Part shown: positions 2,328 to 27,017 of the stretch, one piece after another
How positions within the stretch are numbered: position 1 is the stretch's first letter
Layout: each line of letters begins with the position of its first letter
Assembly (NCBI GenBank): GCA_964408945.1
Contig: CAYPBJ010000010.1
Location: forward strand, 4,008-68,007
Reading direction: 5' to 3'
DNA from: an uncultured Rhizobium sp.
GTDB taxonomy: Bacteria > Bacteroidota > Bacteroidia > NS11-12g > UBA955
Length of the DNA: 64,000 nucleotides
Position numbers and translations under genes: made by a program
Notes under the pieces: generated by a model
What the model was told of the DNA's origin: nothing
The model's database searches: none
Seen by the model: the letters and a program-made list of their open reading frames with translations, nothing else

Positions 2328-4208
2328 ATGAGAAAGGTAGTTAATAATATCGCACTATGCTTTTTGCTGTTGTCTGCTGAACCAATTTCAGCAACCCATT
2401 CTTGCGTGTTTAATACCGAGGTCGACTCCGCTTTAAATACCTTATTATTACCGCCCCATGATGTTCCAAAGAACATACCAAAATCAGATACCGTCTTTGT
2501 AAATATTAAGAGAATTTCTTTTGCCCAAGTAGGAAGACTATCGCAAAATGTTCCAATCAACGAGCAAGGAGCGGTTTTGACTCAAGACCTTTCGCATTCC
2601 GGTGCATTTTTTAAACAATACGGAATTTCCGGTTCGGCTACCATCAGTAAACGAGGTGCCGATGCCACTCAAACACAGGTTCTTTGGAACGGACTTCCCA
2701 TCAATCATCCCATGTTGGGAATGACGGATTTTAATAATTTTAGCACCTTTGGACTATCGGAACTTACTTTTATTGACGGTGGAAACTCCTCTATGTACGG
2801 CAGTGGAAGTGTGGGCGGTACAGTTCTGATGAATCACGATGCAGAGTTTGATCAAGGAAAAAAAATGCAAGGAAGTCTCTCTTATGGAAGCTTCAATAAT
2901 GTGCAATGGGCTGGCATGCTTGGGTACTCGGGTGAAAAAGCCGTAGTTGTGTTTTCACATTCTCAGGTCCGTTTTAAAAATCAATTCACTTATTTTGATC
3001 GCGGATTTGATAAACTTCAAACGGCACAGAATGCTGAATTCATTCAAAAAAATTCTAGATTGCTCACATCCATTAAGGCAACTAGGCATAGCCAAACCAA
3101 ACTAGTGTTGGAATTGGCAAATATGGACCGTGGACTCGGAAGTCTAACCGGAAGTTATAATCTTTTAGGAAACCAAAAAGATCAATCAATCAGAGGTGTT
3201 TTAGAGCACAAATATCACAAGGGAAAATTTGCGTGGATTCAAAAATTTGGTGGTAGCCAAGATATTATTGTTTACACTCAAGCGGGAATTCAAGACAGCA
3301 GTCAAGCGCAGTTGAGATTCGCCATGACAGAGCTGTATTTTACGGTCAATTCTAAAACTCAAATATTGACGGGATTGGATTTTCAACAACAAATCGGCAA
3401 TACCCGCTATTATCAAATAACGCAAATCAGAAATTTACCAGCGCAATTCTTATCCATCAGAAAAAAACACAATAAAACAGATTGGCTAGCCAGCACCCGA
3501 TGGGAATGGAATGAAAGAATTCCATCAGCAGGTATAGGGCAAGAAACTCAATTGGGTAAAAATTGGTTGTTCAAATCTGACATCCACACTAGCTTCAGAA
3601 GAGCTACCTTAAATGATTTGTATTGGGCTCAACCGGGTAATGTGCATTTGAAAAGTGAAACGGGTTGGGAAGTAGAATCTGGTTTTGCCAATAGAGACAA
3701 AAAACTCAAATGGGAGCTTACCGCATTTTACAGAGAATTAAACAACCCTATAATTTGGCTACCCCAAGGAGGTTTATGGTCGGCAATAAATTACCATTTT
3801 GGTCGATATTACGGTTTGCAGGGAAGTATTCAAAATCAGTTTAAAAGTTTCTTTGGAAAAGTAACTGCTGATTGGGTTCGTACCGCGGTAAAAGTAAACG
3901 AGTCTAGCGATTTTCTTCAGCAAATTTTCATTCCTGATTTAATGTCTAATGCCCAAATAGGTTATAAATGGCAGCATTGGATTTTCTCATCCAATTGGTC
4001 ATATACTGGAAATAGATTCATTCAAACCGACAATGAAAAAGTCATGAAGGCATACCAACTATGGGCAGCTCAGGTGCAATACACGCCCAAACATAAATAC
4101 ACCTTCTCGCTAAACGCTCAAAATTTGTTGAATACAGTTTATGAAAACATGCCCGGAAGGCCCATGCCCGGCAGATCAATCCAAATACAAATGAACATAA
4201 AACTATAA
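2328..4208 (+). CDS. btuB: TonB-dependent outer membrane receptor, BtuB-like (cobalamin/corrinoid receptor)
   Basis: 626 aa with a signal peptide, a plug domain (GADATQTQVLWNGLPINHPMLGMTDFNNFS; IDGGNSSMYGSGSVGGTV) and a long beta-barrel region. The size matches BtuB-type small TBDTs. It lies directly behind a cobalamin riboswitch. Confidence 0.85.
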   Translation: MRKVVNNIALCFLLLSAEPISATHSCVFNTEVDSALNTLLLPPHDVPKNIPKSDTVFVNIKRISFAQVGRLSQNVPINEQGAVLTQDLSHSGAFFKQYGISGSATISKRGADATQTQVLWNGLPINHPMLGMTDFNNFSTFGLSELTFIDGGNSSMYGSGSVGGTVLMNHDAEFDQGKKMQGSLSYGSFNNVQWAGMLGYSGEKAVVVFSHSQVRFKNQFTYFDRGFDKLQTAQNAEFIQKNSRLLTSIKATRHSQTKLVLELANMDRGLGSLTGSYNLLGNQKDQSIRGVLEHKYHKGKFAWIQKFGGSQDIIVYTQAGIQDSSQAQLRFAMTELYFTVNSKTQILTGLDFQQQIGNTRYYQITQIRNLPAQFLSIRKKHNKTDWLASTRWEWNERIPSAGIGQETQLGKNWLFKSDIHTSFRRATLNDLYWAQPGNVHLKSETGWEVESGFANRDKKLKWELTAFYRELNNPIIWLPQGGLWSAINYHFGRYYGLQGSIQNQFKSFFGKVTADWVRTAVKVNESSDFLQQIFIPDLMSNAQIGYKWQHWIFSSNWSYTGNRFIQTDNEKVMKAYQLWAAQVQYTPKHKYTFSLNAQNLLNTVYENMPGRPMPGRSIQIQMNIKL

Positions 4209-4210
4209 TT

Positions 4211-5206
4211 ATGAAAATTAAAAATATCATTCTCAGTGCTTTTTTAAGCATCTCAACCATGGCTATCAAAGCTCAAACCCCAACGGTGCGCACCTGGGGA
4301 TTTGAAGAGTTTTACCAAAACGGACTAGACTCTGGGCAAGTTTGGGATGGTTCAGAAGGTAAAAAATCTATAATATTGGATATTCCTAACTTCTTCAACA
4401 TGGAATTGCTAACCGGTTGGGACACTTCATGGGGCGGATATTGGTCAAAAAACTGGGTGCTTACTGCAAAAGATTACAACACCGAAGAGCCTTCTGATTT
4501 TGCAAAACACATTTATTCGGTAAAGCCAGATATTGACAATGAAAATACAGGTCGAGTTCATGCTATTGGAAAATCTGGGGCATACATTCTCAATCGCCCT
4601 AAATACAAAGAATTTCAAGACATTGCCTACTTCAAGGTAGCAAATACCACTTTTGCCTACAACAGCATGAAGTTTGGCGACAATTTCGCCAAAAAATTCA
4701 CTCCAGCTGATTACGATACCTTTGTATTGTCAGTAAAAGTCTACAAAAAAGACTCTTTTATTGCAGAAAAAAGGGTTTACCTCGCTGATTTTAGACTTGG
4801 AATAAATAGTTATATAGCAAGCAATTGGATAGAAGTAATCATGCCACTCTCCGGCGATAGCATCACTTTCAATTTGGAAAGTTCTGACAACGGCGATTTT
4901 GGAATGAATACCCCCGCTTATTTCGCTTTAGATGAAATTACATTGATTGGGCCGGCGTCGGTTAAAAAAATACCTTCACAAAACGTTTTGGTTTATCCAA
5001 ATCCAGCTACAGATCAATTGAATTTTAAAAACATTCCTGTTTCTATTTCAAAGGCTTCTTGCATTGACGCTCTAGGCCGTAAACTCGAATTGACTTTGAA
5101 TCCCCAAGGTTCTGCCAATGTCAGCGATCTAAAATCAGGGATTTATTGGGTTGAATTGCAAGATATCAAAGGAGTTACTTACAGATCTTCTTTCATCAAG
5201 AATTAA
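4211..5206 (+). CDS. DUF4465-like secreted protein with T9SS C-terminal sorting domain
   Basis: 331 aa with a signal peptide (ISTMAIKAQT). The central region matches what I remember of the DUF4465 profile (GYWSKNWVL; VANTTFAYNSMKFGDNFAKKF; NTPAYFALDEI). The C-terminal ~80 aa look like a Por_Secre_tail (VLVYPNPATDQLNF...GIYWVELQDIKGVTYRSSFIKN). It starts 2 nt after the btuB-like gene. Confidence 0.75.
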   Translation: MKIKNIILSAFLSISTMAIKAQTPTVRTWGFEEFYQNGLDSGQVWDGSEGKKSIILDIPNFFNMELLTGWDTSWGGYWSKNWVLTAKDYNTEEPSDFAKHIYSVKPDIDNENTGRVHAIGKSGAYILNRPKYKEFQDIAYFKVANTTFAYNSMKFGDNFAKKFTPADYDTFVLSVKVYKKDSFIAEKRVYLADFRLGINSYIASNWIEVIMPLSGDSITFNLESSDNGDFGMNTPAYFALDEITLIGPASVKKIPSQNVLVYPNPATDQLNFKNIPVSISKASCIDALGRKLELTLNPQGSANVSDLKSGIYWVELQDIKGVTYRSSFIKN

Positions 5207-5208
5207 AC

Positions 5209-6258
5209 ATGAGATTTTTGGCTTTTTTTCTGGGGATATTTTTAGCTCTTGGAAGCCTGGTTACTTCGTGCACTCCCGAGGACAAACCTGCACCGTCACC
5301 TAAAAATATTCCCTTAGCCAAAGTTCTCATCTTGTGTGAAGGCAATTTCTTATGGGAAAACGCCCAACTCGATGTTTGGCTGCCAGATAGCCAAATCCTC
5401 ATTTCTAATGCCTACGAATTGCAGAATAACAAGCCATTGGGCGATGTTTTGCAGTCGGGATTGTACGCAAACGGTCGACTTTGGCTTTCAGTAAATAATT
5501 CAGGAAAAATTCTGGAGTTGGATCCTAAAACGCTGATCGAAACCAAAAAGAATATCAGTCCAAACTATCCGCGTTATATGGCATATTCTTTGGCATTTCA
5601 GTCGTTGTTTGTAACCGATTTGAAGAAAAATCGAGTTCGTGAATTGGATGCACAGAGTTTGATACTCAAGCACGAATATCCTGTCTTGCCTCAAAAAATG
5701 GGGGAGTTTTCGGGTTGGACAGAACACATCCTGGAATGGAATCAAAAAATAGTTGCCGCCAACTTAGACGGAAATATCCTCATCATGGATCCTGTTTTGA
5801 AAAGTCAAAAACTTATAAAAGTAGATTCGGGTGCCCAATATTTAGCTGTTGATAAACAAAATCAATTGTGGGTAGTATCCAGCAAAGCAAATGAGTCGAG
5901 TATAACGTTGGTTGATGCTGATGAGCCTCCAAAAGTTTATCGTTTAAATATGCCCATTCAACGCATTTCTTTGGGGGTAAACAAAGATACCTTGTGGGTT
6001 CTCAATCAAAATCGAGTTCATTTTATAGATTTAAAGAACACGTCCTCGGGCGTTATTTTGAATCAAGCATTTACAATAAAAGATGCTCAAAACATATATT
6101 CAATGGGGGTGCATCCTCAAACGGGAGAATTTTACCTCGGCGATGCTCGAGACTATGTGAGTGCAGGAAAAGTTTTCATTTATAGTGCTGATTTTAAGTA
6201 TATAAAAACTCTTGAGACTGGAGTCATTCCCACTGACTTTGTCTTTGTGGGGTTGTAA
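5209..6258 (+). CDS. Beta-propeller lipoprotein (YncE-like / DUF5074-like cell-surface protein)
   Basis: 349 aa with a lipoprotein signal (LALGSLVTSC) followed by TPEDK. Repeated blade-like segments are visible (ILCEGNF..., GRLWLSVNNSGKILELD, QSLFVTDLKKNRVRELD, NQLWVVSS, GEFYLGDARDY). It starts 2 nt after the DUF4465-like gene and ends the riboswitch-led cluster. Confidence 0.7.
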   Translation: MRFLAFFLGIFLALGSLVTSCTPEDKPAPSPKNIPLAKVLILCEGNFLWENAQLDVWLPDSQILISNAYELQNNKPLGDVLQSGLYANGRLWLSVNNSGKILELDPKTLIETKKNISPNYPRYMAYSLAFQSLFVTDLKKNRVRELDAQSLILKHEYPVLPQKMGEFSGWTEHILEWNQKIVAANLDGNILIMDPVLKSQKLIKVDSGAQYLAVDKQNQLWVVSSKANESSITLVDADEPPKVYRLNMPIQRISLGVNKDTLWVLNQNRVHFIDLKNTSSGVILNQAFTIKDAQNIYSMGVHPQTGEFYLGDARDYVSAGKVFIYSADFKYIKTLETGVIPTDFVFVGL

Positions 6259-17722: not shown

Positions 17723-19414
17723 TCAAAATTTCATTTTCTTTCCACCGATGAATGTACGCTTCACGCTAATTCTTTTCAAATCATCTACGGAGCATTCTAA
17801 AATATCTTTGTCGAGAATCATAAAATCAGCCACTTTATTGGCTTCAATACTTCCTTTCCAAGTATCTTCTCTGTTAGCATAGGCTGCCCAAAGTGTCATC
17901 CCTAGCAAAGTTTCTTTTCGACCTAAAGCTTGTTTCGGTAAAAAGGGAACTGTTAAATTTCCAGCAATATCCATCCGCTGCGTAGCAGAATAAAAAGATG
18001 CAAAAGGGTTGATGGCTTCAACCGGGAAATCCGTTCCAATTGCTACAACTCCAGCACTTTTTAGTAAATCTTTATATGCATAAGCACCCGATTGAGGGTT
18101 GTAAAATTGAGTATAACCAATTCTCTGAGTTGAATCAATGCAAAGTCTTGACATTGCCCATGGCGCGTCTGAAGTAGCATGTGTGGGCTGAATACTCGGA
18201 ATTATTCCCCAATTAGAAAGCTGTTTTTGATCACGGGGATCAACAATTTGTGCATGTTCTATCCTCCAACGAGCGTCAAATCCTTCCGGGATGGTTTGCT
18301 TGAAATTGTTAATAACTAACTTGTTGGCCGAGTCACCAATGGCATGAACACAGACTTGAAAGTTCTTATTTAACAAATATTGAGTGTAATAACTGAATTG
18401 ACCGTAACTCATTAGTTGAAGTCCGTGATATCCATTTCTATCACAGTAATCCGTTTTCAGTAAGGCACCTTTAGAGCCTAATGCACCGTCTAAATAAATT
18501 TTCATACTTTCGCAATGCATGAGGTAATTATTGGGGATTTCATTGGTCCCCACTTTGATTAAATTCTCATCTTTACCAGAAAGCATGGCACAAAACCGCA
18601 TGTGAATTTTCTGATCTTTTTGCAATTTTTGCAAATAATTCATTTCATCCAATTCTAAACCAGCTTCATCTAAAGTAGTCAGACCATATTTATAGATGGT
18701 TTTTGCCTGTTTTACAACGGCTTTAGTCAGTTCTTTTTCATCCATTGGAGGAATGAATTTCCTTACCCAATCAGAGGCATTATCTACAAATATTCCTGTT
18801 GGTTTTCCGCTGGCATCTTTCATGATCTCACCGCCAGCGATGATTGTGTCCCAATTCAAATTCAACGTTTTTAGTGCTATATCATTGACCCAGATGGCAT
18901 GTCCATCAACTCTTGATAAACAGACGGGTTTTTTTGATGCTCCTTTAAGGTCAACTGCCGTAGGAAATGTTTTTTCGCTCCAGTCATTTTGATCCCAACC
19001 ACGTCCAACAATCCATGCGCGTTTGGTTTTGAATTTCTTTACTTTTTTATAAACCTCAGATTTGCTTTTTGTGCCAAAAACATTGACTTCTTTGGTGCCC
19101 CTGCAATAAGCCAAAAAATGACAGTGCGCATCTATGAAACCAGGATACAGATATCCAGTGTGTTTATTGATTTTTGCTGTTGGATATTTTAATTGAGCGT
19201 CATTCAATGAACCCGTAAAACGAATCCATCCATTCTCTTCAACAAAGCACTCCACTGTTGACATAGCTGTATCACAAACGTAAATCTTTGTTGCTGTGTG
19301 AATTGTAGCTTGCGCGTTCAAATAATTTGAGGTCAATACACAAAAAATCAATAAAAATTGAACGAATTTTTGGGGGACAAACGTTTTTAGATTGTTATAC
19401 CTTTGTTTAATCAT
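17723..19414 (-). CDS. Amidohydrolase-family metal-dependent hydrolase (YtcJ-like), secreted
   Basis: 563 aa with a signal peptide (SNYLNAQA). The metal-binding motif reads GFIDAHCH, with later HAIGD and GTDFPVE motifs. Confidence 0.75.
   Translation of the reverse strand: MIKQRYNNLKTFVPQKFVQFLLIFCVLTSNYLNAQATIHTATKIYVCDTAMSTVECFVEENGWIRFTGSLNDAQLKYPTAKINKHTGYLYPGFIDAHCHFLAYCRGTKEVNVFGTKSKSEVYKKVKKFKTKRAWIVGRGWDQNDWSEKTFPTAVDLKGASKKPVCLSRVDGHAIWVNDIALKTLNLNWDTIIAGGEIMKDASGKPTGIFVDNASDWVRKFIPPMDEKELTKAVVKQAKTIYKYGLTTLDEAGLELDEMNYLQKLQKDQKIHMRFCAMLSGKDENLIKVGTNEIPNNYLMHCESMKIYLDGALGSKGALLKTDYCDRNGYHGLQLMSYGQFSYYTQYLLNKNFQVCVHAIGDSANKLVINNFKQTIPEGFDARWRIEHAQIVDPRDQKQLSNWGIIPSIQPTHATSDAPWAMSRLCIDSTQRIGYTQFYNPQSGAYAYKDLLKSAGVVAIGTDFPVEAINPFASFYSATQRMDIAGNLTVPFLPKQALGRKETLLGMTLWAAYANREDTWKGSIEANKVADFMILDKDILECSVDDLKRISVKRTFIGGKKMKF
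19398..19405 (+). promoter_or_regulatory. Bacteroidota-type -7 promoter box (TACCTTTG) for the six-gene envelope operon
   Basis: Exact TAnnTTTG match, 30 nt upstream of ATG 19436. It lies inside the first codons of the divergent amidohydrolase gene. Confidence 0.45.
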
Positions 19415-19419
19415 CTATT

Positions 19420-19427
19420 CAAATTTA
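19420..19427 (-). promoter_or_regulatory. Bacteroidota-type -7 promoter box (TAAATTTG) for the amidohydrolase gene
   Basis: Plus strand reads caaattta, so the reverse complement is TAAATTTG. There are 5 nt between the final G and ATG 19414. Confidence 0.45.
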
Positions 19428-19435
19428 AACATTCT

Positions 19436-19897
19436 ATGAAGTTAGCCAATCGAAAAATTCTTGTATGGTCTGTGGTAGCAGTAATTTTAGTGTCAGTTGC
19501 AGTAGTGTTTTTTATGGCAACAGAATCAAATTCAGGTGTTGTAGAAGAGGAAGCCAAATATAAATTAACGGTTTCTGATTGGGTAAAAGAAGGCTTGGAA
19601 ACATCAGATAGTAGTTTCAATCAGAAATACGTTGGACAAATTGTTGAGATTAGCGGTAAAGTGGCTTCGGTGAAAGCATTAGAGGCACAGAATAGCACTA
19701 ACGTAAAATTGGAAAGCGGGCAAGAAGAAGTCATTGTTGGGGCGCTTTTCAATAAAACATCACAAGAGATTCAAGAATTAGCTCCCGGCCAAGATGTTAC
19801 GGTAGTTTGCGAATGCAACGGAGTTTCTAAACCGGAAGAAGATGATCTTATCAGTGAAGTATTATTCACTCTAAAACATTGTCAATTAAAAAAATAA
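19436..19897 (+). CDS. Membrane-anchored OB-fold-like protein (tRNA_anti-like family candidate)
   Basis: 153 aa from ATG 19436; the track starts at TTG 19403. It has an N-terminal TM anchor (ILVWSVVAVILVSVAVVFFM). The segment FNQKYVGQIVEISGKVASV...VIVGALF...LAPGQDVTVVCECNG...FTLKHCQL fits the pattern I remember for that OB-fold family. Confidence 0.55.
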   Translation: MKLANRKILVWSVVAVILVSVAVVFFMATESNSGVVEEEAKYKLTVSDWVKEGLETSDSSFNQKYVGQIVEISGKVASVKALEAQNSTNVKLESGQEEVIVGALFNKTSQEIQELAPGQDVTVVCECNGVSKPEEDDLISEVLFTLKHCQLKK

Positions 19898-19906
19898 ATC
19901 ATAAAT

Positions 19907-20458
19907 ATGAAAAAGTACATTGCAGTTTTCTTGATGGCTACTCTCTTTACAGTGGGTACATTATTCTCTCAAGCCATCGTTTACAAAACATCTACTGGAA
20001 ATATCACTTTTGTTAGTGAAACAGAATTTGAGAAATTTTCTGCCGTTAACAACCAAGTTACCGCAGCAATATCTTCACAAGGGAAGGTACAATTCAAAGC
20101 GCCGGTAAATTCTTTTGATTTTGAAAAGAAGTTAATGCAAACCCATTTCCAAGAGAATTATATGGAGTCTGCTACCTTTCCCAATGGTGTTTTTAAAGGG
20201 CAAATTGAAGATTTGAAGTCATTCAACTTAGGTAAAAGTGGCACATATTCGGTCACTGTAAAAGGCACACTAGAAATTCACGGTGTAACCAAAGAAGTTG
20301 TAATTCCAGGGAAAATTGTAGTTGACGGCGACCAAGTAACGTTGAAATCTAACTTTTCCATCTCTTGTGCTGAATACGGCGTAAAAATTCCGAAAAACAA
20401 CGTAAATCAAATTTCTGATAGTATTAAGATTTCCGTTAATTGTTCTTTATCTAAATAA
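19907..20458 (+). CDS. YceI-family periplasmic lipid/polyisoprenoid-binding protein
   Basis: 183 aa with a signal peptide. YceI-like strings are present (GNITFVSE...; TVKGTLEIHGVTKEVVIPG; FSISCAEYGVKIP). Confidence 0.75.
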   Translation: MKKYIAVFLMATLFTVGTLFSQAIVYKTSTGNITFVSETEFEKFSAVNNQVTAAISSQGKVQFKAPVNSFDFEKKLMQTHFQENYMESATFPNGVFKGQIEDLKSFNLGKSGTYSVTVKGTLEIHGVTKEVVIPGKIVVDGDQVTLKSNFSISCAEYGVKIPKNNVNQISDSIKISVNCSLSK

Positions 20459-20466
20459 TTGCACAA

Positions 20467-21111
20467 ATGAAAACGGTCTTTTTTGGTGCAGTCATTGCTG
20501 CGTCAGGTTTGTTTGTGGGCTCATGTCAGCATGAAGTTCTACCCAATGTTAATGCATCTGATATTTGTTTTGAGCGCGACGTATTGCCCATTTTTGTATC
20601 CAATTGTGCCATGAATGGTTGCCACGACGCAGGTACAGCGGCAGAAGATTATATCCTGACAAATTACGCCACCATTTTGTCAGAAGGCATTCGACCAGGA
20701 AGACCTGAAAATTCGAAAATTTGGGAGGAAATTGAAGAAAATGAAATGCCCCCAAATCATCCATTGACCGCCGAGCAAAAATCCATCATTAAAACATGGA
20801 TCGCTGCAGGGGCTCCCAATGGAGTGAATTGCAGCAGCAATTGTGATTCTTCTTTATTCACCTATTCAGAGGCTGTGTCGCCCATCATTACTAAAAACTG
20901 TGTAGGATGCCATCAATATCCTAGTGCTAGTGGTAGTGTTGATTTGAGTTCATATCAAGGGGTTCGAGACATCGCAAAATCAGGAGCTTTTGTTCATAGT
21001 GTGCAAGGCACCAACGGGTATAAAAAAATGCCACCTTCGGGTGCAGGATTGTCTGAATGTGAAATTAATCAAATTAAAAAATGGGTAGCAAACGGGGCTC
21101 AACAAAATTAA
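20467..21111 (+). CDS. Lipoprotein with two PSCyt1-like (planctomycete cytochrome c-like) modules
   Basis: 214 aa with lipobox LFVGSC. Module 1 reads CFERDVLPIFVSNCAMNGCHD...MPP...IKTWIAAGAP, giving a C-x4-CH motif. Module 2 reads VSPIITKNCVGCHQ...KKMPPSG...IKKWVANGA, giving a canonical CxxCH. Confidence 0.65.
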   Translation: MKTVFFGAVIAASGLFVGSCQHEVLPNVNASDICFERDVLPIFVSNCAMNGCHDAGTAAEDYILTNYATILSEGIRPGRPENSKIWEEIEENEMPPNHPLTAEQKSIIKTWIAAGAPNGVNCSSNCDSSLFTYSEAVSPIITKNCVGCHQYPSASGSVDLSSYQGVRDIAKSGAFVHSVQGTNGYKKMPPSGAGLSECEINQIKKWVANGAQQN

Positions 21112-21467
21112 TTTCGGCAAGCCTAATTGCTCTAGTTACAGTTTTAGGTTCATGCTATTACGATAAGTCTGAGAGTCTTTACGGCGTAACAAAATGCGAT
21201 ACAACCAATGTGGGTTATTCAAATGTGATTTCACCAATCATTCAACGTGATTGTGCAGGTTGCCATTCGGGGTCAGGAGCTTCAGCTGGAATTCAATTGT
21301 ACGATTACACCTCCGTTAAAACATACATGAGCTCAAATAAAATGCGTTTGGTGGGTTCTGTAAAATGGGATGGTACTGCATCAAATATGCCCAAGGGTGG
21401 TAATAAATGGAGCAATTGCAACATCAACTCAATGGAGGCTTGGGTCAATCAAGGCATGAAACCATGA
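21081..21467 (+). CDS. Lipoprotein with one PSCyt1-like CxxCH module
   Basis: 128 aa with lipobox TVLGSC. The module reads ISPIIQRDCAGCHSGSGASAG...NMPKGG...MEAWVNQG. It overlaps the upstream gene by 31 nt. Confidence 0.6.
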   Translation: MGSKRGSTKLISASLIALVTVLGSCYYDKSESLYGVTKCDTTNVGYSNVISPIIQRDCAGCHSGSGASAGIQLYDYTSVKTYMSSNKMRLVGSVKWDGTASNMPKGGNKWSNCNINSMEAWVNQGMKP

Positions 21468-22360
21468 CGGCAATTTCACTATGGAAATTAATTGCCCTAA
21501 AACTGGCATTAATTACAAGCATATTTCAACCTAATTCGGCTAAATCTCAAGAAATTGCAGAAAAACCAAAGAAGGAAAAACCCAACTATAACGTTCCTCT
21601 GACAGAAGCTCCAAGCAATTCAAAATCGCTCAGGCTCATCACAGGACATACATCCTCTACACTACCCAAAGGAACCTTCGAGTTTGTTATTCAACACCGA
21701 TTTGGAGAATTGAATGAAGGTGCTGAGAATCTATTCGGATTGGATAATTTCAATTCTGTGCGTTTGGGATTTGATTGGGCTCTTGGAAACAGAATCACCA
21801 TTGGCGCAGGTCGGAGTTCCAGAGGAAAGATGTTTAACTCCTATTTTAAATGGAGAATGATTGGAAGTCCCAGAACCAAATTCAATTTAACTTACCTCGC
21901 TAATACCGATATTGATGGTAGGAAAACAAGCGACTGGGGCGTATCGCCTTTCTTTTTCTCCCACAGATTGGCCTATACGCATCAATTGATTTTTTCCCAA
22001 CAATTTGGAGAGAAATTAGTCATTGGCATTGCGCCAACGCTGGTGCATTTTAATTTGGTTGACCTAAACAATCAGTCAAATGATATTCCATATGTAAATG
22101 CTTATGTAAGACGAACTTTATCCCCAAAGATGGCTTTGACTTTCGAAGGATCTACACTTATTAATGGAATAGTGAATACCCCCGAAAAAAACAATCCCAC
22201 CCTAGGATTTGGGTTTGAATATTTCACCCCTAAACATACTTTTCAAATCAATTTAACCAATTCAAGGTCACTTTATGAGTCCGGATTTTTAACCCAAAAT
22301 CCAACTTCTACGTCCATGAACCAATTTTGTTTGGGTTTTAATTTAATCAGGAGATGGTAA
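21464..22360 (+). CDS. Predicted outer-membrane beta-barrel protein (DUF5777-like), paralog 1
   Basis: 298 aa from ATG 21464, whose ATGA overlaps the upstream stop; the track starts at 21407. It has a signal peptide (LALITSIFQPNSAKSQE) and the conserved block FVIQHRFGELNEGAENLFGLDNFNSVRLGFDWALGNRITIGAGRSS. The rest shows an alternating amphipathic pattern. Confidence 0.6.
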   Translation: MTAISLWKLIALKLALITSIFQPNSAKSQEIAEKPKKEKPNYNVPLTEAPSNSKSLRLITGHTSSTLPKGTFEFVIQHRFGELNEGAENLFGLDNFNSVRLGFDWALGNRITIGAGRSSRGKMFNSYFKWRMIGSPRTKFNLTYLANTDIDGRKTSDWGVSPFFFSHRLAYTHQLIFSQQFGEKLVIGIAPTLVHFNLVDLNNQSNDIPYVNAYVRRTLSPKMALTFEGSTLINGIVNTPEKNNPTLGFGFEYFTPKHTFQINLTNSRSLYESGFLTQNPTSTSMNQFCLGFNLIRRW

Positions 22361-23256
22361 GGAATTATAACATATTGTTTGCTTTAATAAGCATTTTAAG
22401 TTTGCCATCTTTACAAGCTCAAGACGATGATTTTGATCTGTTAGGTGAAGAAAAGCCAATTGTGACAAAAGTGAATTACGCTTTTAAAACAACCAAAGTA
22501 ATCAATCTTCAAAGCACAGAGGTAACTGATAAAGGGGTGCTCGATTTTAAAATGATGCACCGATTTGGACCTACCAATGCTGGTGCTTACGAAGCTTTCG
22601 GTTTGGATCAATCTACTGTTCGATTTGGTTTTGAGTATGGAATCACTCACTCAACCATGATTTCAGCGGGTAGATCAAATGTCAATGGGTTAAAAAACCT
22701 CGATCTTTTTCTAAAACAAAGAATTCTTCATCAGAATTCAACCAATACCATTCCCGTGAGCGTGCTCGCTGTGGTAGGTACCCAATATCTCACAGGTAGT
22801 AATTTCAATGTTCTTACCAATCAACAACGAAGCTCTTACTTTGCCCAATTGATCATTGCACGCAAATTCGATGAAGACTTTACGTTAGAATTGGTTCCAA
22901 CGTGGTTGTACAACGCTAAAAATCCACCCACAATGCCAACTTTAGAAACACCAGCAGTTTCTCAATTAGCTTTGGGTGTAGGTTTGCGTCACAAAATCAG
23001 TCCTCGAAGCAGCATCAATTTAGAATATATTCCCATTCTCACTAATAAAGGAACAGTTACCAATTGCTTTTCAATAGGAATGGATGTTGAAACCGGCGGA
23101 CACGTTTTTCAATTTCATTTGACAAACAGTCCCGGCTTGAACGAAACCCAGTTCATTTCGAATACCACAGACCCTTGGAAATCAGGCGGAATAAGACTCG
23201 GATTTAACCTTTCGAGGGTGTTTACCGTGGTAAAACCCAAGGGATTTAAAAAGTAA
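22354..23256 (+). CDS. Predicted outer-membrane beta-barrel protein (DUF5777-like), paralog 2
   Basis: 300 aa with a signal peptide (LSLPSLQAQD). Its conserved block FKMMHRFGPTNAGAYEAFGLDQSTVRFGFEYGITHSTMISAGRSN matches paralog 1. It overlaps paralog 1 by 7 nt. Confidence 0.6.
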   Translation: MVRNYNILFALISILSLPSLQAQDDDFDLLGEEKPIVTKVNYAFKTTKVINLQSTEVTDKGVLDFKMMHRFGPTNAGAYEAFGLDQSTVRFGFEYGITHSTMISAGRSNVNGLKNLDLFLKQRILHQNSTNTIPVSVLAVVGTQYLTGSNFNVLTNQQRSSYFAQLIIARKFDEDFTLELVPTWLYNAKNPPTMPTLETPAVSQLALGVGLRHKISPRSSINLEYIPILTNKGTVTNCFSIGMDVETGGHVFQFHLTNSPGLNETQFISNTTDPWKSGGIRLGFNLSRVFTVVKPKGFKK

Positions 23257-25003
23257 TCAATTGTGTTCGGGGGAATTTATATTGCCAAGGATTTCCCCGG
23301 AAAATTTTGCCTCTAACCCTAGCTGTGGTTGGCTTTGAGCTTTTTATATGGATGCGTATTACACTTTCAATGCTTGAATTGGGAATGTCTTCCAGTTTGA
23401 GCACATGAACAAATGGGTTGGTTTTTTCAGTGTTTGGAATTGCAGTAAATCTGTAGTCAATTTGATTCAATGCTTTGTTGAAACCCGGCTCAAAAAGTGC
23501 AGTTGTGAATTCTAGTGGTTCGGTAGTTGAAGGTATAATTTCAAAATAAACCCAATCATTTCGAGATAGATCGGGGTTCAATTTCTTAAGCTCTAAAAAC
23601 ACGTTGGAATCGTTGGGAATATGCCAAGTGAGGTTTTTTGTTTCTTTCGGGGGATGTTTTATCGCGAAAGCATCTATGCGCCCTCCAATAGTGAACCATG
23701 TGGAAGACTTCTTTCCAATGGTATACCACCATTTAGAATACTGACTAAAAAGAAGAACTCTCTCAAACTTTGATTCCAGCCACGGAAGCATCCAATCAGG
23801 AGTGCCCGAATTACTTACAAATAGAAAGGTGTCTGTTGATTCACCGAGTGAATCTAGATGTTGAAATTGAAGCCCAAACTTTTGAAATTGATATTGCAAA
23901 ACATCTTCAGGCCCATCGGCTTTTATGGGCAGTAGATTTAAAGTTGGGTCTTGGGCAATTTTTGCCACAGTAGATGCATATTTATTGGATGTTCTAATGA
24001 ATTGAAATTGAACTTCGTGAATCAAACTCACAAGTAAGACCGCCATGAGCAAAAATCTTCCGACAGCTGGAACTTTAGAGAATGTAAATGTCCCCAGAAA
24101 AAATAAAAAAAATGGAAAGGCAAAATAAACTACGTGATTTTGCAGAACAGGCTTGAAAATCACTGAATAAGTCCAACCAATCGCCAAAACGGAAATCCAG
24201 GTAGAAATGGCGATAATTGCTGTTTTGCCGACTTTGGCCTCTTGATAAAGACTCCAAGAAGTTGCTAAAATCACAATCAACAAAACAAGGTTGGATTGAT
24301 TAAAAGTGAAATAAAGATGATCAACAAACCAATCAATTTTGGGTTTCCCCAACCAGCTGAGCCCGCCTTCGTGGATTTGATGAGTAAAAACGGTCCATTG
24401 GGGAGCAGCTATGAGGAATGCAATGAAAAGAATTTTAAAATTTCGGATGTTAATTTTATTGCTGATAAACAGATAGATAATTGATGTTAAAAAACTGAAA
24501 TAATGGGTGTAAAGCGTCAAACTGAGTAAAAATCCGACGAAAATCTGGTTTGAGTGACGTCGAAAATTTAAAAACAACAAAAGTGCTGTCAATCCCAATT
24601 CGTATGGCCTCACCCAAACCGACATGCTCACGGGGAAATACAAGAGAGCCATCAAAATTGCAGAGAATTCAGCTGCTTTTTTATCTGACTCCATCAAGCA
24701 AAAGCGGTAAAACAGCCCGAGGTTCATCAATGAAAATAGGCCCCAAATCAGCTTGTAGGTCCATTCGTTGAAATGCAGAACTTTGAAAAGTATCCAAATA
24801 ATAGTTTGAACCCCAGCAGGGTGACCGTCAATGGCAACCCCCTGAGTAATGTGTGCCCAAAATGAAGATTGAGTTTTTTCGGCCCTGAACAAAGCACCTA
24901 ACTCATCAGAATCCATGGGTACAGCTGATAAATCGTAGAACCTTACTGCAGCGGCAATGAAAATCAGCAAGATAAAAAACCAGTGTTTTTTCAGGAGATT
25001 CAC
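23246..25003 (-). CDS. GT-C fold glycosyltransferase-like membrane protein (ArnT/PMT, GT39/GT83-like) with C-terminal soluble domain
   Basis: 585 aa. The N-terminal ~330 aa are polytopic, with an acidic motif in the first loop (RFYDLSAVPMDSDELGALF). The C-terminal ~250 aa are soluble. Confidence 0.55.
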   Translation of the reverse strand: MNLLKKHWFFILLIFIAAAVRFYDLSAVPMDSDELGALFRAEKTQSSFWAHITQGVAIDGHPAGVQTIIWILFKVLHFNEWTYKLIWGLFSLMNLGLFYRFCLMESDKKAAEFSAILMALLYFPVSMSVWVRPYELGLTALLLFLNFRRHSNQIFVGFLLSLTLYTHYFSFLTSIIYLFISNKINIRNFKILFIAFLIAAPQWTVFTHQIHEGGLSWLGKPKIDWFVDHLYFTFNQSNLVLLIVILATSWSLYQEAKVGKTAIIAISTWISVLAIGWTYSVIFKPVLQNHVVYFAFPFFLFFLGTFTFSKVPAVGRFLLMAVLLVSLIHEVQFQFIRTSNKYASTVAKIAQDPTLNLLPIKADGPEDVLQYQFQKFGLQFQHLDSLGESTDTFLFVSNSGTPDWMLPWLESKFERVLLFSQYSKWWYTIGKKSSTWFTIGGRIDAFAIKHPPKETKNLTWHIPNDSNVFLELKKLNPDLSRNDWVYFEIIPSTTEPLEFTTALFEPGFNKALNQIDYRFTAIPNTEKTNPFVHVLKLEDIPNSSIESVIRIHIKSSKPTTARVRGKIFRGNPWQYKFPRTQLITF

Positions 25004-26293
25004 TTAGGTTTTCTGCTTAGATTTTTGAGCGGAAGGAAAAAGGATGTTGTTGAGAATTAACCTAAATCCTGGACTGTTAGGGTGTAGGTTAAGGTCGGTT
25101 GGTGGTTCACCTACGTGATGTTGGTAATCTTCGGGGTCGTGCCCACCAAAAAAGGTCCATGTACCCTTACCCATTTCACCGTGAATGTATCTTGCTTCAT
25201 TCAGTAAGGCGTTTTCGCCCATAACCAACACATCACTTTTGATTAAATCTCTTTTGAAAGCCGTAGTTTGCCCCATAAATCCACGTACTGTTTTGGTGTG
25301 ATTTTGACATAAAATACTGGGAATTAAGTCCCACTTTGCTGAATAATCAAAAAGGGTAAATAAATCAGTTTCTTCTGTAACATTACGTGTATTTGGATTC
25401 ACGTCAATGTTTGAATATTCGTAAATATATGGACTGGTCTCTAGGGTGAAATTTTTAAATGCGAAGCACTGGTCATAATTGAGTTTCTGCTGGGCCTGCG
25501 GGTCAGCAGGGTCACCGTCGAACATGCTTTCACAGATGTCTGTATTTTGTGCAGCCAAAGAAATATCATAGGTATCGGTGGCACTGCACATGGCGAATAA
25601 AAATCCGCCGCCAAGACAGAAATCTCTGATTTTTAAAGTGACCGCTTTTTTCAATTCTCTGACGGTTTTGTAACCGTGTTTTCGGGCCATGCTTTCGGCT
25701 TCTTGAACCTGAGAAATATACCACGGAGCCGTAGAGTAGGAGGCCCAAAATTTGCCGTATTGTCCGGTGAAATCTTCGTGATGCAAGTGAAGCCAGTCGT
25801 ATTCGGGTAATTTATTTTCTAAAACTTCGTCGTCAAAAATTACAGTGTAAGGAATCTCAGCATAGGTCAGAACCAGAGTAACAGCATCATCCCAGGGTTG
25901 TTTAGATTTAGGTGAATAAACAGCAATTTTTGGAGCATTTAGAAGTTTTAGCATATTCATATTCACCTCCGGATTTGAAATGGTGGTTTCAATAGAATTG
26001 GCTTCTGATTCAGAGATAACTTCAAAAGTAACGCCTCTGGTTTTACATTCACGCTCGGCGTCAGCGTTGTATTTGGTCATAAAACTTCCTCCGCGGTAGT
26101 TTAAAAGCCACAACACTTCTGATTTTTGTTTGTCGAGAATCCAAAAAGCGATACCGTAAGATTTTAGGTGGTTTTTTTGGGATTCATCCATGGGGATGAG
26201 GATTCGCGTTGCCTGAAGAGAGGCGAACATCCCCAGAAAAACTAATAAAAAGATTGATTTCCAACCCACCGATGTGTAGTATTTCTGAAGCAT
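25004..26293 (-). CDS. Conserved secreted protein of unknown function (family often labelled asparagine synthetase B in Bacteroidota annotations)
   Basis: About 430 aa from ATG 26293 (MLQKYYTSVGWKSIFLLVFLGMFASLQA, a signal peptide); the track starts at 26356. Recognisable strings include ILIPMDESQKNHLKSYGIAFW, LLNYRGGSF and HHEDFTGQYGKFW...GGGFLFAMCSATD. It abuts the GT-C gene with no gap. Confidence 0.5.
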   Translation of the reverse strand: MLQKYYTSVGWKSIFLLVFLGMFASLQATRILIPMDESQKNHLKSYGIAFWILDKQKSEVLWLLNYRGGSFMTKYNADAERECKTRGVTFEVISESEANSIETTISNPEVNMNMLKLLNAPKIAVYSPKSKQPWDDAVTLVLTYAEIPYTVIFDDEVLENKLPEYDWLHLHHEDFTGQYGKFWASYSTAPWYISQVQEAESMARKHGYKTVRELKKAVTLKIRDFCLGGGFLFAMCSATDTYDISLAAQNTDICESMFDGDPADPQAQQKLNYDQCFAFKNFTLETSPYIYEYSNIDVNPNTRNVTEETDLFTLFDYSAKWDLIPSILCQNHTKTVRGFMGQTTAFKRDLIKSDVLVMGENALLNEARYIHGEMGKGTWTFFGGHDPEDYQHHVGEPPTDLNLHPNSPGFRLILNNILFPSAQKSKQKT

Positions 26294-26330
26294 GACAACG
26301 AAGTTAAGGCAAATTGAATATTTTCGCGGC

Positions 26331-27017
26331 ATGGAATACCGCATTTCTAGAATCATTAAAGAATCTCCCCGTGTTCGTCGATTTTTTCTTGATACAGGTG
26401 CGTTTGATTTTGATCCAGGTCAATTTGTGGTATTAACTCATCCAGATTTACCGTTTGGACAAAACCAAAGGAGTTATTCAATCGCTTCCTTGAATTCCAA
26501 GCAGGAAGAATTAGAACTGTGCATTGTTTTAAATGAAAAAGGATCAGTAACACCTTGGTTGTTTCAGAAAATTGAGGGTGAAATGCTTGATATTTCTTTG
26601 GCTCAAGGGACATTCAATCTCAAAAACGAGGGCAATTCAGGTCCTATTGTTTTTGTTGCAACGGGCACTGGAGTAGCTCCTTTTCGGAGCATGATTGATG
26701 CCTCTCTCAAAAATACTGATTCAGAGGTGCACCTTGTTTTTGGCAACCGCATTGCAGAAGATATATTGTACAGAGAACACTGGGAATCCTTGCAGCATGA
26801 AAATGCGCGCTTTCATTTTTATCCAGTTTTAAGCAGGGAAGAGGCATTAAATTGTCATTTTGGGTATGTTCATGGTATTTATGAATCTTTGTTAAGAGAT
26901 CAAATAGATGCTAGAATTTACGTTTGTGGTTGGCAAGATATGTGCAAAGAAGCCCGAGAAAGACTCAAATTGTTGGGTTTCAATCGTAAACAATATGCAT
27001 TCGAACAATATGATTGA
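26331..27017 (+). CDS. Ferredoxin-NADP reductase-like FAD/NAD(P)-binding oxidoreductase
   Basis: 228 aa from ATG 26331; the track starts at 26292. The FAD motif is RSYSIAS, the NAD(P) motif is VATGTGVAPFRS, and YVCG occurs near the C-terminus. Confidence 0.75.
   Translation: MEYRISRIIKESPRVRRFFLDTGAFDFDPGQFVVLTHPDLPFGQNQRSYSIASLNSKQEELELCIVLNEKGSVTPWLFQKIEGEMLDISLAQGTFNLKNEGNSGPIVFVATGTGVAPFRSMIDASLKNTDSEVHLVFGNRIAEDILYREHWESLQHENARFHFYPVLSREEALNCHFGYVHGIYESLLRDQIDARIYVCGWQDMCKEARERLKLLGFNRKQYAFEQYD

Follow-up and report, generated by a model that had tools for sequence, protein, structure and literature searches.

A conserved six-gene Bacteroidota operon with a putative redox function at the outer membrane

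Operon layout

Do six closely spaced genes for exported proteins form one functional unit, and if so, what would that unit do? The question was raised by one locus in the window, the whole stretch of 64,000 nucleotides that was analyzed. ORF analysis of the window identified six plus-strand ORFs (g1 to g6) forming a single tightly packed run (19436–23256), and the same six genes were called publicly on identical metagenome contigs. The junctions, in gene order, were gaps of 9 and 8 nt followed by overlaps of 31, 4 (ATGA), and 7 nt. All six products carried export signals. The layout and junction lengths reported by an earlier, sequence-only reading held exactly against the ORF coordinates, and its domain guesses (YceI, PSCyt1, DUF5777, and tRNA_anti-like) were all upheld by Pfam. 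Co-transcription, which it had also claimed, is here inferred from spacing and conserved synteny, without transcript data.

The same reading had placed a promoter box ahead of the operon. The sequence TACCTTTG (19398–19405, plus strand) was present and fitted TAnnTTTG, the −7 promoter consensus of Bacteroidota; it preceded the g1 ATG by 31 nt and fell inside the divergent amidohydrolase ORF, at its 5′ end. Further plus-strand TAnnTTTG copies were found inside g6. Because the window contained 80 copies of the pattern, where chance alone would give 74.7, TACCTTTG alone is no evidence of a promoter, and the claim carries no statistical weight; its position could suit a promoter, while the match itself was not significant. 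Sigma-70-like and terminator-like sites inside the operon occurred at chance level only.

Gene products

The first gene, g1 (19436–19897, plus strand), encoded a 153 aa protein anchored by an N-terminal TM helix, whose periplasmic domain, an OB fold, matched tRNA_anti-like (PF12869; 8e-11). Its AF2 model (pLDDT 83) placed a helix at residues 2–30 ahead of the OB fold, and the best small Foldseek match was 3f1z (TMt 0.68). In family alignments, Cys127 and Cys149 were conserved throughout. The second gene, g2 (19907–20458, plus strand), encoded a 183 aa periplasmic, lipocalin-like YceI-family protein (Pfam YceI, 1e-17; 0.0036 against the YceI-like PDB entry 5ixh) with the motif F.F...LM.EHFNENY, conserved in 77 cluster members. 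Its signal peptide ended in LFS before a Gln, and Gln followed the signal peptides of g5 and g6 as well. Known ligands of YceI proteins are polyisoprenoid or quinone-like lipids, and in Proteobacteria the proteins are commonly paired with cytochrome b561.

The next two genes encoded a diheme c-type cytochrome lipoprotein of the PSCyt1/FoxE type (g3; 20467–21111, plus strand; 214 aa; lipobox VGSC) and a monoheme c-type cytochrome lipoprotein (g4; 21081–21467, plus strand; 128 aa; lipobox LGSC). Pfam matches of g3 were PSCyt1 (1.4e-11) and Cytochrome_CBB3 (3e-8), and its motifs were, in order, CAMNGCH (CX4CH, residues 47–53), MPP (Met83), CVGCH (145–149), and MPP (Met187). The CxxCH motifs that had been noted in both lipoproteins were confirmed at residue 145 of g3 and residue 58 of g4 (CAGCH); the additional CX4CH of g3 had been missed. 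CX4CH was kept at 62 sites across 110 family proteins and swapped with CXXCH at the same position among homologues, and heme attachment at the g3 CX4CH is inferred from sequence alone. FoxE was matched in the PDB (5mab, 5e-7; domain i-E-value 0.004), and g3 kept the FoxE order of heme motifs and MP(P) methionines, the FoxE heme ligands being taken from PMC10654088. Likeness to FoxE came mostly from generic PSCyt1 motifs, where the low identity was concentrated.

The Pfam Cytochrom_C score of g4 (0.012) was below cut-off; the protein showed clear homology to the C-terminal g3 domain and to family members. In the monoheme family a tether motif, C-YYD-x-EE-x-LYP, follows the lipidated Cys and was conserved in approximately 30 of 45 homologues (CYYDKSESLYG in g4). 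Both lipoproteins are predicted to be class-I-like c-type cytochromes with His-Met ligand motifs. Surface exposure of the lipoproteins was unsupported, as CYYDKSES of g4 fitted the published LES signal C-X-K-(D/E)2-X poorly.

The last two genes, g5 (21464–22360, plus strand) and g6 (22354–23256, plus strand; 300 aa), encoded DUF5777 outer-membrane barrels (Pfam 2e-57 and 3e-74, respectively) that were 26% identical when aligned. The longest ORF of g5 starts at 21407, and the ATG at 21464, which produces the ATGA overlap with g4, is likely its true start. This divergent paralogue was restricted to the window's lineage (loci L001–L005 and L083). The signal peptide of g6 ended in LQA before its Gln, and the conserved N-terminal segment was AFKTTKVINLQS. 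The AF2 model of g6 contained 12 strands (pLDDT 77.5, pTM 0.73); Foldseek returned only generic 12–14-stranded outer-membrane barrels (TM ≤ 0.48), and the DUF5777 barrel had no sequence match in the PDB.

The DUF5777 family comprised 2413 clusters at 50% identity, with the invariant motifs HRFG, GLD, ETGGHVFQ, TNS, and GFN. The g6 lumen was polar, glycine-rich, and rich in basic residues. Lumen-facing positions conserved at 88–100% included D64, K66, R70, R90, E94, R107, D117, K121, R123, Q165, K171, R212, K214, N222, E224, D244, E246, Q253, R281, and N285, together with nine glycines. Unlike the lumen, lipid-facing positions were variable; a conserved lipid-facing patch occurred at the β11-β12-β1 seam (H250, F252, F284, L286, R288, F290, F65, M67, H69, and F71). 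A barrel of 12 strands cannot hold a cytochrome, and the AF2 model carries no pore or ligand information.

Conservation across Bacteroidota

Synteny was counted over 59 barrel-anchored Bacteroidota loci with enough flanking sequence. These spanned Chitinophagaceae, Saprospiraceae, Flavobacteriales, Cytophagales, and Sphingobacteriales at barrel identities of 38–65%, and the gene set was found across hundreds of Bacteroidota species. In 57 of the 59 loci the same-strand cluster included a redox protein next to the barrel, of one of three kinds: cytochrome c lipoprotein, TAT-Rieske lipoprotein, or choice-of-anchor-V protein with CxxCH. YceI was beside the barrel in 49 loci, and the OB protein adjoined it in 40. 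Gaps within clusters were small (medians of 18–35 nt); YceI and the barrel formed the tightest pair (median 23 nt in 51 loci). The window's flanking genes, an amidohydrolase and a PMT_2-like protein, were syntenic within its own lineage without obvious functional link, and its flanks were conserved in just 5 of 80 loci. The six genes thus belong to a genuine module, co-inherited as a same-strand cluster.

The sequence-only reading had held that it would be refuted if, among other outcomes, the genes were not syntenic in related genomes or the ~300-aa proteins were not predicted as outer-membrane barrels. None of the refuting outcomes that could be computed was met: the genes were syntenic across distant Bacteroidota families, and the ~300-aa proteins modeled as outer-membrane β-barrels.

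The commonest order was diheme cytochrome, monoheme cytochrome, OB protein, YceI, and a single barrel, so the window's gene order and duplicated barrel are lineage-specific. A second barrel subfamily, from Bacteroidales-type MAGs, had the diheme and monoheme cytochromes, OB protein, and barrel without YceI. Altogether, YceI was missing from 10 of the 59 loci; given this and its absence from a whole subfamily, a lipid mediator is not essential to the core mechanism. Reduced clusters, containing only YceI and the barrel or only the OB protein, YceI, and the barrel, were found at six loci (L007, L040, L070, L079, L006, and L081).

Other redox proteins were found at some loci. At seven loci, of Cytophagales type, the cytochromes were replaced by a TAT-signal Rieske 2Fe-2S lipoprotein directly upstream of a barrel-YceI pair, and at seven loci a T9SS-sorted choice-of-anchor-V protein (CxxCH or CX4CH) lay inside the cluster. 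In one protein cluster only (P0302; two independent assemblies), a choice-of-anchor-V/Reeler CxxCH domain was fused to the N-terminus of the DUF5777 barrel. Regulators flanked 33 of the 59 clusters: either a LytTR response regulator with a Reg_prop/Y_Y_Y histidine kinase, which came with an extra YceI copy, or an ECF sigma factor with an anti-sigma partner carrying an outer-membrane β-barrel (OMP) domain. The window's own locus had no adjacent regulator and no surface cytochrome. Just downstream of two clusters (L017 and L019), a T9SS-sorted Redoxin/AhpC-TSA protein was encoded on the opposite strand.

Proposed function

The reading favored here, with moderate confidence, is that the operon encodes a conserved, Bacteroidota-specific periplasm-to-outer-membrane redox module. 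The function is inferred, without experimental or expression data; within that limit the sequence-only interpretation was supported, which saw a periplasm-to-outer-membrane module resembling in its logic porin-cytochrome conduits or a trafficking route for a lipophilic cofactor (quinone or heme). The redox reading is strengthened by the Rieske replacement, the embedded choice-of-anchor-V CxxCH protein, and the FoxE-like diheme protein. In this view the membrane-tethered cytochromes would pass single electrons between the inner-membrane respiratory chain and a site at or in the DUF5777 barrel, formed by its conserved polar, glycine-rich lumen and conserved loops. That site would either bind its ligand specifically or let a small substrate or mediator through; the barrel itself would not sheathe a cytochrome. 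YceI would ferry a lipophilic redox mediator or cofactor (e.g., menaquinone) over the periplasm to the barrel, with the OB protein as docking partner at the inner membrane. The net effect would be to oxidize or reduce a substrate that is extracellular or lies in the outer membrane, and in other genomes the envelope sensors (LytTR two-component or ECF sigma/anti-sigma) would switch the module on. The cluster encodes no inner-membrane quinol dehydrogenase or terminal oxidase, and the link to the respiratory chain is therefore assumed. Iron and quinone lead as possible substrates, with iron ahead because g3 resembles FoxE.

Alternative explanations

A trans-envelope lipid or cofactor shuttle remains possible. 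By analogy with Mla/Lpt-type layouts (inner-membrane anchor, periplasmic carrier, and outer-membrane component), the inner-membrane-anchored OB protein would give soluble YceI a polyisoprenoid cargo (a lipid such as menaquinone, polyprenol, or carotenoid), and YceI would bring it to the barrel to be inserted into or exported across the outer membrane, the cytochromes merely setting or sensing its redox state. The tight YceI-barrel pairing (median gap 23 nt, 51 loci), the reduced clusters, and the lipid binding known for YceI favor it, and the conserved β11-β12-β1 seam patch recalls, by analogy, the lateral gates of lipid-handling barrels. However, the barrel was accompanied by a redox protein more often than by YceI (57 against 49 of 59 loci), a whole subfamily keeps cytochromes, OB protein, and barrel without YceI, a pure shuttle leaves the interchange of Rieske protein and cytochrome c unexplained, and the lumen is charged and polar rather than hydrophobic. 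Less likely is an inducible envelope stress or oxidant-defence module, in which electrons from the cytochromes would serve to detoxify or repair oxidized components of the outer membrane or periplasm (lipid radicals, quinones, superoxide, or peroxide) and YceI would supply quinone, as has been suggested for its pairs with cytochrome b561 in Proteobacteria. The frequent envelope regulators (ECF sigma/anti-sigma, or LytTR with extra YceI), the Redoxin/AhpC-TSA protein near L017 and L019, and the pairing of YceI with heme proteins speak for it; yet the cluster has no peroxidase, SOD, or thiol-reductase domain, the window's lineage lacks the regulators, and this reading gives no reason for a dedicated barrel whose lumen is conserved.

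Heme or iron acquisition or handling is very doubtful. The barrel would import heme or an iron chelate, and the putative cytochromes and YceI would be periplasmic heme/iron binding or reducing proteins. A basic-rich lumen could suit anionic ligands (heme propionates and Fe-chelates), and a Reeler-like domain joins the module, as Reeler and cytochrome b561 are combined in the eukaryotic ferric-chelate reductase FRRS1. One Riemerella YceI gene was mildly induced under iron limitation (PMC5429918), its homology to g2 being unestablished. Against this, the cluster has no TonB box or plug, ABC importer, or heme oxygenase, CxxCH proteins hold heme covalently as cofactor and not as cargo, and passive 12-stranded barrels scavenge scarce iron poorly. 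That the genes form no functional unit and are neighbors by chance or lineage-specific synteny can be all but dismissed: the flanks, without obvious functional link, are likewise syntenic in the window's lineage, but they persist in only 5 of 80 loci, whereas the core set recurs, same-strand and tightly spaced, in families with entirely different flanks.

Comparison with known systems

DUF5777 (PF19089) was not mentioned in the literature searched, and public annotation of these proteins was limited to hypothetical or "DUF5777 family beta-barrel protein". On these grounds the earlier statement that no characterized system has this composition stands, within the literature and annotations searched.

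Like MtrCAB of Shewanella, PioAB/MtoAB, and Geobacter Pcc, the operon combines an outer-membrane β-barrel with periplasmic c-type cytochromes, some relatives add a cell-surface CxxCH protein, and the shared logic would be movement of electrons to or from the outer membrane. The barrels of those conduits have 20–26 or more strands, against 12 predicted here, and their cytochromes have 8–10 hemes, against one or two motifs in cytochromes that cannot span the membrane. There was no sequence relationship, and nothing in those conduits corresponds to YceI or the OB-fold protein. The small size of the barrel and the low number of hemes in the cytochromes rule out membership of the MtrAB-type porin-cytochrome family; the porin-cytochrome resemblance noted earlier holds as logic only.

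The only module part with a solved relative is g3, which shares with FoxE (FoxEYZ, the Fe(II) oxidase of Rhodobacter ferrooxidans SW2) two hemes and two PSCyt1-like domains. Unlike FoxE, g3 is a lipoprotein whose first motif is CX4CH; the operon lacks a FoxY (PQQ) or FoxZ partner, and FoxE lacks a barrel, YceI, or OB partner. The Cyc2 fused cytochrome-porin Fe(II) oxidases also pair a small outer-membrane barrel with a single-heme domain, a minimal arrangement compared with Mtr, and the rare P0302 fusion has a similar form. In the window, however, the hemes would belong to lipoproteins separate from the barrel, which has 12 strands (~16 in Cyc2), and no homology to Cyc2 was detectable. The yceJ-yceI pairs of Proteobacteria likewise couple a periplasmic YceI lipocalin genetically to a heme electron-transfer protein, but there the partner is an inner-membrane b-type cytochrome; here YceI is joined by an outer-membrane barrel and by a lipoprotein of either the c-type cytochrome or the Rieske kind. 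The closest structural matches of g6 were NanC/KdgM, OmpG, COG4313, FapF, and autotransporter translocators (12–14 strands), with TM-scores of 0.41–0.48 and sequence identities of 8–13% to such small specific barrels; the richness of the lumen in basic residues was shared with NanC and KdgM.

Conservation of the Barrel Cluster Across Bacteroidota

The six forward-strand genes at 19398–23256 of the window, a span that includes an upstream candidate promoter box, encode an OB-fold anchor protein (g1), a YceI protein (g2), a diheme and a monoheme cytochrome lipoprotein (g3 and g4), and two DUF5777 barrels (g5 and g6). A barrel-motif scan, in which each GTDB species was represented by a single genome, revealed relatives of g6 in at least 596 species. 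Orthologues were identified in cultured species, among them Runella defluvii, Runella salmonicolor, Emticicia spp., Adhaeribacter terreus, Flavihumibacter solisilvae, and Daejeonella sp. The best 80 loci, essentially all from Bacteroidota (Chitinophagaceae, Saprospiraceae, Flavobacteriales, Cytophagales, and Sphingobacteriales), were analyzed by tblastn with the window proteins and by de novo clustering of all ORFs. PSCyt1-type cytochrome lipoproteins were found on the same strand as the barrel in 64–66 of the 80 loci, YceI in 65–66, and the OB-fold anchor protein in 52. Sharper counts came from the 59 loci in which the flanking DNA was long enough: a redox partner adjoined the barrel in 57, YceI was present in 49, and the OB protein in 40. 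Median intergenic gaps within the clusters were 18–35 nt.

The commonest gene order was diheme cytochrome, monoheme cytochrome, OB protein, YceI, and barrel. The order seen in the window (OB protein, YceI, two cytochromes, and two barrels) occurred only in its own lineage (L001–L005 and L083), as did the second, divergent barrel (26% identity). Another barrel subfamily, found in Bacteroidales-type MAGs, had the order diheme cytochrome, monoheme cytochrome, OB protein, and barrel, without YceI.

The wider surroundings of the operon were ordinary. The flanking amidohydrolase and PMT_2-like genes were common to the L001–L005 and L083 lineage. The flanking genes (a MacAB-like ABC/HlyD system, the amidohydrolase, the PMT_2-like membrane protein, and a 450-aa unknown protein) were rejected as functional partners because their synteny stayed within the window's own lineage.

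Gene Layout and Export Signals

The ORFs, all on the + strand, were located at 19436–19897 (g1), 19907–20458 (g2), 20467–21111 (g3), 21081–21467 (g4), 21464–22360 (g5; the longest possible ORF begins at 21407), and 22354–23256 (g6). Their junctions were gaps of 9 and 8 nt followed by overlaps of 31, 4 (ATGA), and 7 nt, and gene calls on public metagenome contigs identical to the window gave the same six genes. All six products carried an export signal. A single N-terminal transmembrane helix was found in g1 (helix 2–30 in the AF2 model); g2, g5, and g6 had a cleavable signal peptide followed by Gln, a residue invariant at this position across the barrel family; and lipoboxes were present in g3 (VGSC) and g4 (LGSC).

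The sequence-only reading had proposed this six-gene layout and its junctions, which held exactly, and its domain guesses (tRNA_anti-like, YceI, PSCyt1, and DUF5777) were each confirmed by Pfam. Its observation was confirmed overall, except for the weight given to the promoter box. This element failed as evidence: TAnnTTTG occurred 80 times in the window vs. 74.7 expected, and extra + strand copies were located within g6. Generic promoter and terminator scans of the region returned only chance-level results, and no Rfam matches were found at positions 15–28 kb in the window. As the promoter box and these scans were uninformative, co-transcription of g1–g6 is inferred solely from how the genes are spaced and from their synteny.

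The divergent amidohydrolase gene starts at 19414, just 21 nt from the g1 ATG, and therefore each promoter must sit within the 5′ coding part of the other gene. Matches to TAnnTTTG were present here on both strands, at 19398–19405 (+) and 19420–19427 (−).

Cytochrome Lipoproteins

The g3 protein matched Pfam PSCyt1 (1.4e-11; 45.3 bits vs. a cut-off of 22) and Cytochrome_CBB3 (3e-8). The g4 match to Cytochrom_C (0.012) fell under threshold, but g4 showed clear homology both to the second g3 domain and to monoheme lipoproteins that form a large family. Each domain contained a heme motif and a distal Met in an MP motif: CAMNGCH with Met83 and CVGCH with Met187 in g3, and CAGCH58 with ‘NMPKG’ in g4. 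Covalent heme in both proteins is inferred from these CxxCH and CX4CH motifs. A comparison of g3 against the PDB matched FoxE (5mab), a solved Fe(II) oxidase, at 5e-7. In FoxE the heme I ligands are Cys37-Cys40-His41-Met208 and those of heme II are Met94-Cys147-Cys150-His151 (PMC10654088). This order of heme motifs and MP methionines was mirrored by g3: CX4CH (47–53), Met83 (MPP), CVGCH (145–149), and Met187 (MPP).

The CX4CH motif of g3 (residues 47–53; window 20605–20625) reads CAMNGCH, and the family form is C-A-x-S-G-C-H. Within 110 family proteins there were 62 CX4CH occurrences. In diheme proteins the N-terminal domain nearly always bore the C-A-x-S-G-C-H form, and among the monoheme homologues of this set CXXCH and CX4CH alternated at the same site. 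Because of this conservation and exchange, CX4CH is very likely a functional variant of the heme-attachment motif, an inference made without demonstration of covalent heme. A CX4CH motif (CTSSGCH) was also present in the choice-of-anchor-V protein encoded in some related clusters.

After the lipidated Cys, the g4 family carried a near-invariant tether, C-YYD-(K/N)-EE-x-LYP (g4 residues 25–35; window 21153–21185), for which the diheme family equivalent was C-KHEP. The window proteins themselves read CYYDKSES in g4, against CYYD(K/N)EE in the family, and CQHEV in g3. Both types of tether are too conserved to be mere linkers, and that of the monoheme family may represent a docking motif or a divergent signal for surface export. 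The Bacteroidota lipoprotein export signal (LES), which directs surface export, is C-X-K-(D/E)2-X directly after the lipidated Cys (PMC5080379); the g4 family tether was similarly acidic, yet offset from the published optimal position, which leaves surface exposure of the cytochrome lipoproteins by way of an LES no more than a possibility. A literature search on PSCyt1 returned nothing functional.

YceI and OB-Fold Proteins

The g2 protein matched Pfam YceI (PF04264) at 65.2 bits (cut-off 23.7; E = 1e-17), and the typical YceI family motif was present and conserved. Binding of a polyisoprenoid or quinone-like lipid by g2 is inferred in the absence of lipid data, and searches of the literature on YceI with Flavobacterium or Bacteroidetes returned nothing functional.

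The g1 protein matched Pfam tRNA_anti-like (PF12869) at 42.1 bits (cut-off 23.5; E = 8e-11), and its AF2 model (pLDDT 83) consisted of a transmembrane helix and an OB fold. The nearest Foldseek match was 3f1z (TMt 0.68), a Klebsiella ‘putative nucleic-acid-binding lipoprotein’ of unknown function, along with the anticodon-binding OB domains of aminoacyl-tRNA synthetases; a sequence search of g1 against the PDB gave no matches. The OB family evolves fast: it had just 38 database matches, and identity was 36–41% beyond the window's genus-level group. Two Cys and no His were conserved in the g1 family. CcmE is a membrane-anchored OB fold with a conserved heme-binding His in its C-terminal tail. 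Despite shared topology and size, identification of g1 as a CcmE-like heme chaperone was rejected because no His was conserved and CcmE was absent from the Foldseek matches.

DUF5777 Barrels

Both barrels matched Pfam DUF5777 (PF19089; cut-off 23.1), g5 at 194.9 bits and g6 at 249.8 bits (E = 2e-57 and 3e-74). The g6 AF2 model (pLDDT 77.5, pTM 0.73) had 12 strands within residues 62–291, and on this basis DUF5777 proteins of the g5/g6 type are predicted to be outer-membrane β-barrels. Foldseek against the PDB matched the barrel model only to generic 12–14-stranded outer-membrane barrels (OmpG, NanC, KdgM, FapF, COG4313, and autotransporter/invasin translocators), with a TM-score of at most 0.48 and 8–13% identity. 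A profile search against PDB sequences found no relative. The DUF5777 family comprised 2413 clusters at 50% identity, and no paper on DUF5777/PF19089 was found in the literature searched.

Strand alternation and conservation together indicated a lumen face that was 88–100% conserved and rich in Arg/Lys, Asp/Glu, and Gly, and a lipid face that was variable. Patterns of this kind typify proteins with a specific binding site, a passage, or an enzymatic role, and not general porins. Loops L1 and L6 and the N-terminal segment AFKTTKVINLQS were also conserved, as was a lipid-facing patch at the β11-β12-β1 seam that holds both invariant histidines.

These histidines, H69 and H250, were considered as a bis-His pair that would bind heme or a metal in the lumen, and this candidate was rejected. 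H69 lies near the extracellular end of β1 and H250 at the periplasmic turn before β11; by strand alternation both face the lipid and therefore cannot be lumenal co-ligands. A type Va autotransporter reading of the window's 12-stranded barrels also found no support. Type Va autotransporters have an N-terminal passenger and a linker running through a C-terminal 12-stranded barrel. In g5 and g6 just ~35–40 residues preceded strand 1, with no passenger and no lumenal helix predicted, and a passenger-like Reeler domain on a DUF5777 barrel was found only in the singleton database protein P0302. Two other database proteins, P0159 (615 aa) and P0308 (614 aa), had two DUF5777 barrels per polypeptide, like g5 and g6 fused; either a true tandem-barrel protein or a frameshift merge of genes overlapping by 7 nt is possible.

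Additional Partners and Regulators

In Cytophagales and Sphingobacteriales, a 148-aa Rieske 2Fe-2S lipoprotein with a TAT signal directly preceded the barrel and YceI, in the place of the cytochromes. This arrangement was found in Emticicia, Runella, Dyadobacter, Daejeonella, and related genomes (L010, L015, L024, L054, L072, L073, and L075; at about 7.4–8.0 kb in each locus). In seven loci (L009, L011, L019, L023, L042, L051, and L052) a choice-of-anchor-V protein (NF041895, 3.5e-21) was encoded between the OB protein and YceI. It contained either CxxCH or CX4CH and ended in a sorting tail for T9SS, and is therefore destined for the cell surface. The same Reeler-type domain was fused N-terminally to a DUF5777 barrel in P0302 (L090:959–2329), giving an autotransporter-like architecture. 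This fusion occurred in two independent assemblies, with monoheme cytochrome genes ahead of it. As a Rosetta-stone proof it was downgraded to weak support, since it formed a single cluster among 3507 hits. A literature search on the bacterial Reeler domain returned nothing functional.

Regulators flanked the cluster in 33 of the 59 loci. One type comprised a Reg_prop/Y_Y_Y histidine kinase and a LytTR response regulator, in many cases accompanied by an additional YceI; the other comprised an ECF sigma factor and an anti-sigma protein ending in an OMP β-barrel domain. An ECF sigma/anti-sigma gene lay ahead of the module in L021, L024, L030, L036, L043, L071, L077, and L078. The anti-sigma-like protein (~455 aa) had a cytoplasmic N-terminus and one transmembrane segment, from which a long linker rich in Pro, Ser, and Ala led to a C-terminal outer-membrane barrel domain (OMP_b-brl_2). 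It resembles an envelope-spanning regulator.

In two loci (L017:8949–13712 (−) and L019:8879–9658 (−)), the gene directly downstream of the barrel ran in the opposite direction and encoded a protein with a T9SS sorting signal and an N-terminal AhpC-TSA/Redoxin domain; one of these proteins was 1587 aa long with SprB repeats.

Proposed Function and Alternatives

The sequence-only reading had interpreted the operon, with due caution, as an uncharacterized envelope system. This interpretation was supported and strengthened by the comparative data, with function remaining inferred and untested. A redox module at the outer membrane is the favored function, judged somewhat more likely than not. Across the loci compared, the barrel with a one-electron carrier (cytochrome c or Rieske) was the invariant association, YceI and the OB anchor were frequent accessories, and the surface CxxCH protein was an occasional one. 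The most economical view is an extracytoplasmic electron-transfer chain that would end at the outer membrane. Membrane-tethered cytochromes would form a bridge from the respiratory chain to a specific site within or on the DUF5777 barrel, YceI would carry a lipophilic mediator, e.g., menaquinone, and the OB protein would serve as the inner-membrane dock. Among candidate substrates iron leads, by inference only, because of the resemblance to FoxE and a parallel with Reeler-containing ferric reductases.

The strong form of this proposal, in which electrons truly cross the outer membrane, is improbable. In this bolder reading, Bacteroidota would possess an unrecognized minimal trans-outer-membrane electron conduit. 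It would be assembled from the 12-stranded DUF5777 barrel, cytochrome c lipoproteins with one or two hemes (or Rieske lipoproteins), and an isoprenoid quinone bound to YceI. In some cases a CxxCH protein of the choice-of-anchor-V/Reeler type, displayed by T9SS, would cap it.

Among the alternatives, chance neighborhood of g1–g6 without any functional unit is all but excluded. A shuttle for a lipid or cofactor, with the redox proteins as its accessories, is an unlikely explanation. An inducible defense against oxidants or envelope stress, a reading to be set beside the regulators flanking many clusters, is likewise unlikely and ranks below the shuttle. Acquisition of heme or iron through the module is very unlikely.

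Comparison With Known Systems

No characterized system combines these parts, and the system is undescribed. In working logic the outer-membrane redox module is nearest to the porin-cytochrome and Cyc2 systems, yet it lacks their defining features: they have 16–26 strands (vs. 12) and 8–10 hemes (vs. one or two in the module's cytochromes), and share no homology with it. MtrAB, PioAB, and Pcc require a porin of at least 20 strands sheathing the cytochrome, which a barrel of 300 aa with 12 predicted strands does not meet, and a periplasmic cytochrome of at least eight hemes, which two motifs in g3 and one in g4 do not meet. Co-encoding of barrel and cytochrome is shared with the module (57/59 loci). 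With FoxEYZ the module has a cytochrome fold family in common; FoxY, a PQQ protein, and FoxZ were absent from the window cluster and the 80 related loci. The YceI-cytochrome b561 pairs of Proteobacteria are echoed by the module, but the heme partners differ.

Bacteroidota are dominant aerobic heterotrophs of soil, freshwater, sludge, and ocean. Their envelope biology is known mainly through glycan uptake (Sus) and T9SS, and extracellular electron transfer is, to our knowledge, not a recognized trait of the phylum. The module couples electron carriers (c-type cytochromes or Rieske proteins) with a dedicated barrel of the outer membrane and a carrier for lipids, a combination that suggests an outer-membrane redox activity not yet studied. 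Were the bolder reading true, Bacteroidota would gain a route by which iron, manganese, humics, or quinones outside the cell could be oxidized or reduced. If the activity is electron exchange with iron, manganese, or quinones beyond the cell, it would change the placement of Bacteroidota in metal and carbon cycling and would represent a minimal design distinct from Mtr and Cyc2. Three questions become testable: the role of YceI, the possible status of CX4CH (‘CAxSGCH’) as a routine Bacteroidota heme site, and the purpose of the widespread extracytoplasmic tRNA_anti-like OB proteins.

Other Observations in the Window

The convergent gene at 23246–25003 (−) overlaps the g6 stop by 11 nt at its 3′ end. 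It encodes a 585-aa polytopic membrane protein whose orthologues match PMT_2 (ArnT-like glycosyltransferase). It is followed by the gene for the 450-aa protein (25004–26356 (−)), which was 73–84% identical in relatives, far above the conservation of the module genes, and had no Pfam or NCBIfam match. Another small envelope cluster of unknown function, at 2328–6258, contained a TonB-dependent receptor, after which came a DUF4465 protein sorted by T9SS and a DUF5074 protein.
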